Below are positions 60,001 to 63,000 of a stretch of DNA of 64,000 nt, in pieces. Source of the stretch: Escherichia coli (lineage in GTDB: Bacteria > Pseudomonadota > Gammaproteobacteria > Enterobacterales > Enterobacteriaceae). Position 1 is the stretch's first letter; the number at the start of each line of letters is the position of its first letter. A program made the position numbers. The stretch lies in NCBI RefSeq assembly GCF_041886205.1, contig NZ_CP169030.1, one strand, 5' to 3'.

Positions 60001-63000
60001 TTTTAGTCATCCTGTTTACCTCTTTCTCAGGAAGTTTAGTCTCCAGGATTCCCGGGGCGGTTCACTGGCTGTTCACAGTCAGGCGTTCCGTACTGAAAAA
60101 GCCTGTCGGGATGCCTTCACCGCGCTGAAAAAAGAAAACGTGGGGGAATTTGCTCTCCGTGGCGTCTGCGTCCCCGCCGGAGAATAAACAAGACATGCGC
60201 AACCGGAGTCCGCTATGACATCCCCGGACCTTATAGAACCACGGCAGCCTGACGACTGCAAATTGAAAACCGGCCCTGTTCGTCCTGTTGTTGCCGCACG
60301 CCCCGCAGAATATGTATGCTCTGAGGACCTGTTTTATTAAGGACTCATCCCCTTATGTTGACCCGCAAAAGTATCGATACAGTTCTGCTCTCTGTTGGTG
60401 CTGAGAAGCTCTCACAACGTGAATGGGACTGGATGAAGATGCTCAAACCCATGGACCCACCACCTGCGATGGTCGCTGCCTCCATCCTGGAGCACCGTGG
60501 CGACACAGCAGCCCTTACCCTGCTACAGGATACCGGGGGTTAATCCGTCCTCATGTTATCCGGTTTTACTCCCCGCCCTCTGAAACGCCTGTTCACAGCC
60601 AACCAGTGCTGGACGTCCTTCCTGGATGCGGGCGGTCTGCGCGATATCGAGGTTGAGGCTGTCACCAAAATGCTGGCCTGCGGCACGCGGATACTGGGCG
60701 TGAAGGAATACAACTGCGATAAACCTGACTGTCCCCACGTCAGATACGTCACTAACTCATGTGGCAGCCGTGCCTGCCCGTCCTGCGGAAAAAAGGCCAC
60801 AGACCTGTGGACAGCGACACAGCTGAATCGTCTTCCTGACTGCGACTGGGTACACCTGGTCTTCACCCTGCCGGCCACGCTGTGGCCGGTGTTCGAAAGC
60901 AACCGTTGGCTGCTGAATGACGTGTGCCGTCTGGCGGTGGAGAATCTGCTGTATGCCGCCCGAAAACGGGGGCTGGAACCCGGTATCTTCTGCGCCATCC
61001 ACACATATGGCCGTCGTCTCAACTGGCATCCGCATGTACATGTGTCAGTAACCTGCGGGGGGCTGAATAAGCACGGTCAGTGGAAAAAGCTGAGCTTCCT
61101 GAAAGACGCGATGCGTTCGCGGTGGATGTGGAATATGCGGCAGTTGCTTCTGAAAGCGTGGTCAGAGGGGATGGCGATGCCGGAGTCGTTGTCACATATC
61201 ACGACGGAATCACAGTGGAGAAGCCTGGTGCTGAAAGCCGGCGGAAAATACTGGCATGTGTACATGTCGAAGAAGACGGCCGACGGGCGGAATACGGCAC
61301 GCTACCTGGGTCGTTATCTGAAGAAGCCACCAATAGCGGCTTCCCGGCTGGCACATTACAACGGAGGGGCAAGCCTGAGCTTCCGTTACCTGGACCACAA
61401 AACGGGAGAAACGGCGACGGAAACACTGACGCAGCGGGAGCTGGTCGCGAGGCTGAAACAGCACATCCCGGAGAAGTTTTTTAAGATGGTGAGGTACTTC
61501 GGGTTCCTTGCCAACCGGGTGTGTGGAGAGAAGCTGCCGAAGGTGTACCGGGCTCTGGGGATGGATAAACCGGAACCGGTGGCGAAAGTGTGCTATGCAC
61601 AAATGGTGAAACAGTTCCTGAGTCGTGACCCGTTCGAATGCGTGCTGTGTGGCGGCCAGATGGTATACCGCCGGGCCCTTGCGGGGCTGAATGTATCAGG
61701 GCTGAAGAAAAACGCGCGGGATATCAGTCTGCTGAGGTATATGCCGGCCTGACGCAGGCTAAGTGTGCCCAGGAATTGGTGCAGGAATAAAAAACAGCCT
61801 GTTGCGGTATAAGAATCGACCATGCAGAGAGAGAAAACACCGGAGTGGTGGGAAAAGCAGAAGAGCTCACGTGGCATAAGGCGTGGACAGCGGTATCGTC
61901 TGGTTTTTCAATTTCCTATACGTGGACGTTCAGGTTATTCCGTCCAGTTCTGCTGGCAGCGTGAGATCTCCCCTGGTATAGTGATGCCACGGCAAAGTGC
62001 TCAAACAGGGATAATATGATGGAAATCAAGGCTCAACAGTTTGTCACATCAACGGGGCGGCAAGTCCTTACTGACAACGGACAACAAGGTATGGGCGGCG
62101 TGGCGGGTATCGGTTCCACGACTGAAAAGCATCAGGGGCGCGTGGCGGAAGCAATTTTTGCGAACTGCGCGGAACTGGATAACGACCAGCTTAACGAGAT
62201 CATCGAGTGGGTTCGGCTCTATCAGCGCTGAATGCCATCATCAGGCTGCGCAAGCGGCTTTTTTTACGCCCCTTGTTTAATTCCCGCACTACCTGGACAT
62301 TCAGGTGATTCTGTCCATCTGTATAAAAAACAACAAAAAGACTTGTTAACAGGTCATATAAGGAGTATTTTTGAGACTGGTTAAATAGTCTTGAAAGGTG
62401 GCCTATGCCTAACATTATTCTCAGTGATACAAGCGCCAGTGTCAGCGAGCTGAAGAAAAATCCGATGGCGACAGTCAGCGCCGGTGATGGTTTCCCGGTC
62501 GCTATCCTGAACCGTAATCAGCCTGCTTTCTACTGTGTACCCGCAGAGCTGTACGAAAAGATGCTCGATGCCTTGGACGATCAGGAGCTGGTTAAACTGG
62601 TAGCCGAACGCAGCAACCAACCGCTGCATGATGTGGACTTGGATAAATACCTATGAGGTATCAGGTAAAATTCAGGGAAGATGCGCTGAAAGAGTGGCAA
62701 AAACTGGACAAGACTATTCAGCAACAGTTTGCGAAAAAGCTAAAAAAGTGCTGTGACAATCCGCATATTCCTTCCGCAAAACTGCGCGGGATAAAGGACT
62801 GCTACAAAATAAAATTACGTGCGTCAGGTTTTCGCCTGGTCTATCAGGTGATTGACGAACAATTAATTATCGCTGTTGTAGCAGTGGGTAAACGTGAGCG
62901 CAGTGACGTTTATAATCTTGCCAGTGAAAGAATGAGATAATTCACGGCGGATTATCGGTTCAGCCCTCTCATTAACCGCTGATGCTGAGTTGGTGTGTAG

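Follow-up and report, generated by a model that had tools for sequence, protein, structure and literature searches.

This report concerns a toxin-antitoxin (TA) gene pair at positions 62405-62940 of a 64,000-nucleotide stretch of Escherichia coli DNA (contig NZ_CP169030.1, assembly GCF_041886205.1; this whole stretch is called the window here), and the insertion sequence (IS) of the IS91 family that lies upstream of it. We read the pair as a relBE-type type II operon from the maintenance block of an IncFIB plasmid, the IS being its neighbour and not its vehicle, and the plasmid-like tail of the window being joined to the rest at a copy of IS3; we give this reading a probability of about 0.88. 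A first-pass annotation had listed, from position 60300 onwards, a rolling-circle (HUH) IS91-family transposase gene, a small open reading frame (ORF), an overlapping antitoxin/toxin pair with a RelE-like toxin, and an IS3-family remnant. All these features are present at their places, but the IS itself is wider and occupies 60236-61923. The same annotation saw in the TA pair a cargo mobilised by one-ended transposition of the IS, set in an Ag43-associated island; on both points the results led us elsewhere.

A Plasmid Maintenance Block at the End of the Window

The right-hand end of the window has the following features (aa, amino acids).

61923-61945, + strand: first copy of a 23-bp direct repeat, TGGACGTTCAGGTTATTCCGTCC
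62016-62231, + strand: 71-aa ORF of the plasmid backbone, preceded by a promoter-like site (61953-61982) and followed by a terminator-like hairpin (62243-62260)
62294-62316, + strand: second copy of the 23-bp direct repeat, TGGACATTCAGGTGATTCTGTCC
62338-62392, + strand: candidate TA promoter/operator region of predicted function, with the palindrome GACTTGTTAACAGGTC plus an imperfect inverted repeat of 18 nt
62405-62656, + strand: antitoxin of 83 aa with an N-terminal domain of the Phd/YefM/YafN type (RelB of P307 type or StbD-like)
62653-62940, + strand: RelE toxin of 95 aa, assigned from family profiles, alignment with solved RelE, and conserved active-site residues
62990-63396, + strand: 3' remnant of an IS3-family transposase gene in two frames, frameshifted, found also at the same place in the plasmid backbone
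63397-64000, + strand: upstream region of RepFIB rep, then 14 codons of rep counted from a probable CTG start at 63959, up to the end of the window

From 61923 to 64000 the DNA is 98.5% identical to the IncFIB/FIC plasmid pPSS-15_1, where it lies between parA-parB and the replication gene and without an IS91 element. Among 5,426 complete E. coli genomes, the TA region (61924-62960) was detected at 244 plasmid places versus 2 chromosomal ones, and it matches 1,190 plasmids of PLSDB, from Escherichia, Shigella, Klebsiella, Salmonella, and others. All four proteins that were checked have exact public matches; the toxin, the antitoxin, and the 71-aa protein each occur on at least 1,000 contigs, and the database names on exact matches include 'plasmid stability protein' and 'antitoxin StbD'. 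The TA pair, the IS, and their families are already known, and these exact proteins are among the commonest plasmid proteins in Enterobacteriaceae.

The gene order around the pair is also constant. In the eight longest contexts of the exact toxin the order is always ParB-ParA, small ORF, antitoxin, toxin, Rep3_N protein, integrase, and an IS91 element between the genes of the block was seen in none of the eight. Only one record spans an IS/TA junction at a coverage of at least 80%, and neither the complete E. coli genomes nor the plasmids of PLSDB showed the window's arrangement of left flank, IS, and TA pair. The 71-aa ORF, antitoxin, toxin, IS3 remnant, and RepFIB rep are a standard IncFIB backbone block, which is almost always free of the IS; its order in IncFIB plasmids is parA-parB, small ORF, antitoxin, toxin, IS3 remnant, rep(FIB), integrase.

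The last nucleotides of the window belong to the replication gene. The sequence GTCCACAGGCAGGAGGCTTTCTGGAAAAC at 63941-63969 is the region of the ribosome-binding site and CTG start of FIB replicons, a region discussed in PMC11983097. The RefSeq-annotated GTG start of rep, 14 codons past the CTG, falls at window position 64001. Since the window ends within the start region of RepFIB rep, the plasmid-derived segment contains at least the beginning of a replicon.

Polarity of the Insertion Sequence and the Question of Cargo

The IS upstream of the block has the following components.

60236-61923, + strand: complete 1,688-bp IS1294/ISSbo1-like element of the IS91 family, with terIS GAACCACGGCAGCC... 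at 60236 and oriIS ...GGTTTTTCAATTTCCTATACGT ending at 61923
60355-60543, + strand: 62-aa ORF inside the IS, its stop 9 nt before the ATG of tnpA, hypothetical in many RefSeq copies
60553-61752, + strand: tnpA, IS91-family transposase of 399 aa, inside the IS1294-like element
61924-61927, no strand assigned: target tetranucleotide GGAC (5'-GTCC on the other strand) abutting oriIS, from the end comparison of nine copies and the target rule of PMC13181058

The transposase gene is intact. Its product matches the NCBIfam model transpos_IS91 (NF033538) with 310 bits against a cutoff of 125, and the Pfam families Y2_Tnp (PF04986, E 7.5e-58) and Zn_Tnp_IS91 (PF14319, E 5.4e-22); it carries the HUH motif H159-P-H-V-H (159-163), the tyrosine pair Y251-LGR-Y255, and CPSC at 75.

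The borders of the element were defined by comparison. Megablast of 60065-61930 against the complete E. coli genomes gave 516 records that cover most of this segment, with matches beginning at 60236 and ending at about 61923-61930. Eight copies were fetched and compared with the window copy, nine in all. The unit is exactly 1,688 bp in the window and in seven of the eight fetched copies, while the copy of p504838_108 has only the right end in common. In the aligned copies the unit starts with GAACCACGGCAGCCTG and finishes with GGTTTTTCAATTTCCTATACGT / ...TTCCTATACGT. The left flanks of the nine copies are unrelated; directly after the right end we found GAAC in five, GGAC in two (the window and one other), CAAG in one, and GTAC in one. 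Its two conserved ends, terIS and oriIS, differ from each other, and the element lacks terminal inverted repeats and a target duplication; these traits are hallmarks of the IS91 family. Subterminal hairpins at the IS ends scored no better than shuffles in folding.

The two ends of IS91-family elements differ in function: oriIS initiates and terIS terminates transposition, and the target tetranucleotide adjoins oriIS (5'-GTTC for IS1294, 5'-GTCC for IS1294b, 5'-CTTG for IS91), while the terIS cleavage site of IS801, IS1294, and IS1294b is 5'-GTTC (PMC13181058). The distance from the transposase coding sequence downstream to oriIS is given as 167 bp (PMC5737581); the window IS ends 171 bp past the tnpA stop codon. 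Because the target tetranucleotide adjoins the right end, and because this end lies about 170 bp after tnpA, the right end is oriIS; the left end (GAACCACGG, GAAC) is terIS.

This polarity bears directly on the suggestion that the IS picked up the TA pair through one-ended (rolling-circle) transposition and brought it along as stabilising cargo. Elements of this family do take neighbouring DNA with them in 1-14% of events (PMC13181058), an intact transposase adjoins the pair, and IS91-family elements stand beside the same pair in a few other plasmids. One-ended transposition, however, begins at oriIS, crosses the element, and continues past terIS as far as a similar site (PMC13181058, PMC5737581), so the DNA taken comes from the left, upstream of tnpA, and a TA pair on the right cannot be the cargo. 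Cargo would be expected beyond terIS; the pair lies beyond oriIS, downstream of tnpA and past the target tetranucleotide. Cargo would also be found with the IS in unrelated surroundings; the TA block stays at one fixed backbone position, and in nearly all plasmids it does so without the IS. Where the IS meets the TA side, the sequence has the form of a plain insertion, oriIS|GGAC (oriIS|GTCC by the other strand), immediately upstream of the TA block. Together with the different junction positions described in the next section, polarity and comparative context contradict the capture of the pair, and we regard it as very improbable.

Other Junctions Upstream of the Same Pair

The 23-bp repeat TGGACRTTCAGGTKATTCYGTCC brackets the 71-aa ORF, and none would be expected by chance. 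Each of its copies offers a GGAC target for insertion of an IS91-family element.

Two other plasmids carry such elements upstream of the same TA pair at different points. In p504838_108 a related element with a different left part has its oriIS abutting GAAC 31 bp further left (fetched region 7355-7385). In the plasmid of the mouse strain E. coli M8 the element abuts the GGAC of the second 23-bp repeat (fetched region 2600-2640). With the window, this makes three distinct oriIS junctions, all in the same orientation. Three different positions fit secondary insertions or deletions beside a block already in place and not a single capture event; an IS that is both abundant and target-specific would be expected to leave such junctions in plasmids rich in IS, and they give no sign that the TA pair was captured.

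The ORF between the repeats looks dispensable, because p504838_108 has it frameshifted and the M8 plasmid lacks it. Searches of Pfam, NCBIfam, PADLOC, and PHROGs gave no family for its 71-aa product; the 62-aa ORF of the IS and a 121-aa ORF further upstream (58308-58673) were likewise without a match in PHROGs.

The Toxin, the Antitoxin, and Their Closest Relatives

The toxin was compared at the level of families. The 95-aa protein matches ParE_toxin (PF05016) with 63.6 bits (cutoff 23) and the RelE_StbE subfamily model TIGR02385 with 40.5 bits (cutoff 27.9). The chains of solved E. coli RelE (4v7k, 4fxe) match it with E values from 1e-31 to 1e-30, the best being 1.6e-31 for 4v7k_Ay; residues 1-93 of the toxin align without gaps to residues 1-93 of solved E. 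coli RelE, and the identity over the full length is 56%. In this alignment K52, K54, R61, R81, and Y87 are all invariant. We take these (in E. coli numbering) to be the catalytic and mRNA-contact residues of RelE, a list that reportedly goes back to Neubauer et al. in 2009. The first-pass annotation had made its RelE call depend on conserved catalytic residues, and all five are kept. By homology the protein is a RelE with an intact active site. Among the five small proteins searched with the PADLOC models of anti-phage defence there were no matches.

The antitoxin and toxin genes overlap by 4 nt in ATGA (62653-62656), where the stop of the first meets the start of the second, and the two genes are translationally coupled. 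The 83-aa antitoxin matches a PHROG antitoxin family with E 1.4e-27, and BLASTP aligned it with E. coli YafN at 37% identity (E 3e-12); with the NCBIfam YafN model it scored 40.7 bits, under the cutoff of 99. The BLASTP and profile searches that had been proposed for checking the pair thus gave RelE/ParE matches above the cutoffs for the toxin and a YafN relationship for the antitoxin. The C-terminal, RelE-binding part of RelB matches the antitoxin weakly (E 0.035), which is suggestive at most, and a RelB-like C-terminus is not claimed.

In the mechanism that we propose from these similarities, the 83-aa antitoxin would neutralise the 95-aa RelE by binding it and would repress the operon at the upstream palindromic region. 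If the DNA were lost or synthesis of the antitoxin halted, the labile antitoxin would be degraded, and the freed RelE would cut mRNA in the ribosomal A site, leading to growth arrest (post-segregational killing).

Which relBE is it? The relBE of the E. coli plasmid P307 is said to have been described by Gronlund and Gerdes in 1999 (J Mol Biol 285:1401), and its tabulated gene sizes presumably match the 83 and 95 aa of the window. As a bridge to P307 we used the RelBE pair of the Shigella sonnei plasmid pINV, to which the window toxin is 88% and the window antitoxin 94% identical. The published values between the S. sonnei and P307 proteins are 87.5% and 94.5% (Tang laboratory, PMC8923223), and because the distances match, the window pair is most likely the P307-type relBE or a near-identical allele. 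The S. sonnei pair is itself described as closely related to relBE of P307 (PMC8923223). Experimentally, its toxin kills and the cognate antitoxin rescues (Martyn et al. 2022, PMC8923223), while no measurable stabilisation of pINV by RelBE was seen in the laboratory (PMC8923223). The classical RepFIB sequence M26308 comes from P307 (PMC11983097), whose relBE is described as lying immediately upstream of RepFIB rep.

We rejected YacAB of Shigella pINV as an identity for the pair. Of the two primers published for yacAB, one finds no site in the window even when 3 mismatches are allowed; in addition, yacA of S. sonnei is a locus separate from RelBE.

The IS3 Junction Between Chromosome and Plasmid DNA

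The plasmid-derived part of the window begins at an IS3 copy.

55625-56882, + strand: IS3, with orfA at 55681-55989 and orfB at 55986-56852, at the junction of the chromosome (cobU side) and plasmid-derived DNA

Homology to the chromosome (cobU/pks side) stops at the left edge of this IS3, which is flanked by ATT on the left and TCA on the right and so lacks a 3-bp target duplication. An IS3 without target duplication at a break of homology fits IS3-mediated integration of plasmid DNA. The simplest reading is that 56883-64000, the last ~7 kb, is plasmid-derived and was joined in this way to the chromosomal cob/pks region. The exact toxin is present in the same parAB-TA-RepFIB block on three records longer than 1 Mb (CP010219.1, CP035350.1, KE702411.1), which are a precedent for integration. 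To the left of the junction, 34000-55634 is ordinary B2-type chromosome with the end of the colibactin (clb) island, IS remnants, and ldtA-cobTSU, 98.4-99.7% identical to E. coli 23AR0762.

Several points weigh against our reading of the window and are gathered here. The first concerns the join itself, which may be an assembly error across a repeated IS3, so that the tail 56883-64000 would not belong to the cob/pks region at all. The almost exclusively plasmid-borne nature of the TA region (244 plasmid versus 2 chromosomal places), the position of the join at a 1.26-kb multicopy IS lacking a target duplication, and the fact that the arrangement is reproduced in no complete E. coli genome searched would all be explained by such an error. 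Yet true recombination between two IS3 copies leaves no target duplication either, IS-mediated integration of segments of F-type plasmids is real, and the block does occur on the three records above 1 Mb; we consider an assembly error unlikely. The second concerns the antitoxin, whose match to PhdYeFM_antitox (PF02604), with E 5.4e-6 and 26.5 bits, is under the gathering score of 29.8. The third is that the operator and the promoter are pattern matches, five promoter-like sites having been found versus 2.8 expected in shuffles. The last is that the evidence for identity with P307 is indirect, namely the position beside RepFIB rep, the gene sizes in the literature, and the matching distances to S. 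sonnei. With these points taken into account, we still prefer an IncFIB relBE operon integrated at IS3.

Origin of the Left Flank of the IS

Between IS3 and the IS91-family element lie the remains of a virulence-plasmid locus. The abbreviation SPATE is used for serine-protease autotransporters, and STEC for Shiga toxin-producing E. coli.

56883-57802, + strand: SPATE 3' remnant of 310 codons, the beta-barrel domain ending in ...NANFRYSF, from an EpeA/EspP-type autotransporter gene cut by IS3
57803-58754, + strand: stretch found after the SPATE gene of STEC-type plasmids, with the 121-aa hypothetical ORF
58755-60064, - strand: IS629/IS1203-like IS3-family element, with orfA at 59684-60010, orfB at 58797-59687, and the ALIL frameshift pseudoknot at 59613-59729
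60065-60235, + strand: SPATE-plasmid DNA continued to the left end of the IS91-family element; the empty site in those plasmids is CCTTATA|CAAG

The autotransporter next to the TA region had been taken for Ag43. It is a beta-domain fragment of an EpeA/EspP-type SPATE, and the fragment with its downstream DNA is 98.5-99.5% identical to EpeA/EspP-type loci on STEC plasmids. The IS629-like element is a simple insertion with a 3-bp duplication, CTG; when it is removed, 56884-58754 and 60068-60238 form one continuous match, at ~99%, to EpeA/EspP-type SPATE genes of STEC plasmids and the DNA that lies downstream of them. A search of 55000-64000 with Rfam gave the ALIL frameshift pseudoknot of IS629 as the sole match, and a scan for tRNA genes found none.

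On those plasmids the empty site at the start point of the IS1294-like element, CCTTATA|CAAG, corresponds to a 5'-CTTG target. It follows that the two flanks of the IS come from different canonical sites, the left one from an insertion at this target and the right one from a site upstream of relBE. Such a structure could arise if two IS copies recombined or if the IS moved together with its left-hand DNA by one-ended transposition. The second would mean that the IS first inserted at the CTTG site past the SPATE gene and later overshot terIS, carrying SPATE-side DNA to the GTCC site upstream of relBE. It agrees with a left flank of SPATE-plasmid DNA that ends exactly at the IS and leaves a canonical empty site, and with a right flank at a different canonical target. 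Homologous recombination or deletion between two IS copies, however, gives the same local structure. At the far end of such cargo a GTTC-like surrogate end should meet ...GCCAGAAT in the FIB backbone; the IS3 junction at 56882/56883 has cut away this diagnostic join. We regard this carriage of SPATE-side DNA as possible but less likely than not.

A wider scenario may be outlined, and we present it as doubtful when taken as a whole. Recombination at IS3 would have brought part of an F-type virulence plasmid, with the start of RepFIB and relBE, into a pks-positive E. coli chromosome. The 23-bp TGGAC-containing repeats would be a recurrent landing pad for IS91-family elements, in view of the three oriIS junctions, the IS1294-like copy may have brought SPATE-side DNA with it, and the TA pair would now stabilise the integrated remnant beside the colibactin island.

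For annotation, the outcome is a correction: the autotransporter is a SPATE remnant and not Ag43, and the TA pair is plasmid backbone and not IS cargo. The case is a worked example of why the polarity of an IS91-family element should be checked before its neighbour genes are named 'mobilised'. The attachment of a plasmid-derived window end to the chromosome at IS3 is worth verifying when the strain is assembled or typed.

Comparison with Known Systems

The IS resembles IS1294, IS1294b, and ISSbo1 in many traits. It is ~95% identical to widespread plasmid copies, and one RefSeq copy at 95.9% identity is annotated 'IS91-like element ISSbo1 family'; the 1,688-bp unit, the 399-aa HUH/Y2 transposase, the terIS end GAAC..., the oriIS end ...CCTATACGT, and a GTTC/GTCC/CTTG target beside oriIS are shared. 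It differs from IS91 itself, in which orf121 overlaps tnpA, whereas the 62-aa ORF of the window precedes tnpA without overlap.

Among TA systems, the chromosomal RelBE of E. coli K-12 (PDB 4fxe, 4v7k) shares with the window pair a toxin that is 56% identical, with the catalytic and mRNA-contact residues kept; the ribosome-dependent mRNA cleavage shown for E. coli RelE is presumed for the window toxin too. The antitoxins differ, that of the window being not a ribbon-helix-helix RelB but a protein with a YafN/Phd-YefM-like N-terminal domain. In this respect the pair is similar to StbDE (Morganella plasmid R485; IncI2 plasmid pHNSHP45; PMC11878559), which combines an antitoxin of the Phd/YefM class with a toxin of the RelE/StbE class. 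The similarity extends to names and models, since 'antitoxin StbD' is among the database names of the window antitoxin and the toxin passes RelE_StbE. The window toxin is, however, much closer to RelE proper; the likeness to StbDE is one of class, names, and models.

RelBE of S. sonnei pINV has the same operon layout, lies near a replication origin, and has an IS91-family element as direct neighbour. Its origin is RepFIIA, not RepFIB, and the IS91-family neighbour stands downstream and on the other strand. In S. sonnei 53G this neighbour is an ISSbo1-like element directly after RelBE, on the opposite strand and with its oriIS side toward the TA pair (fetched region 35670-37835).

The relBE of P307 has a RelE-type toxin, an overlapping antitoxin gene upstream, and a position immediately upstream of RepFIB rep of an F-type plasmid, all as in the window. 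The window block differs from it in being linked to chromosomal DNA and in having an IS1294-like element inserted upstream.

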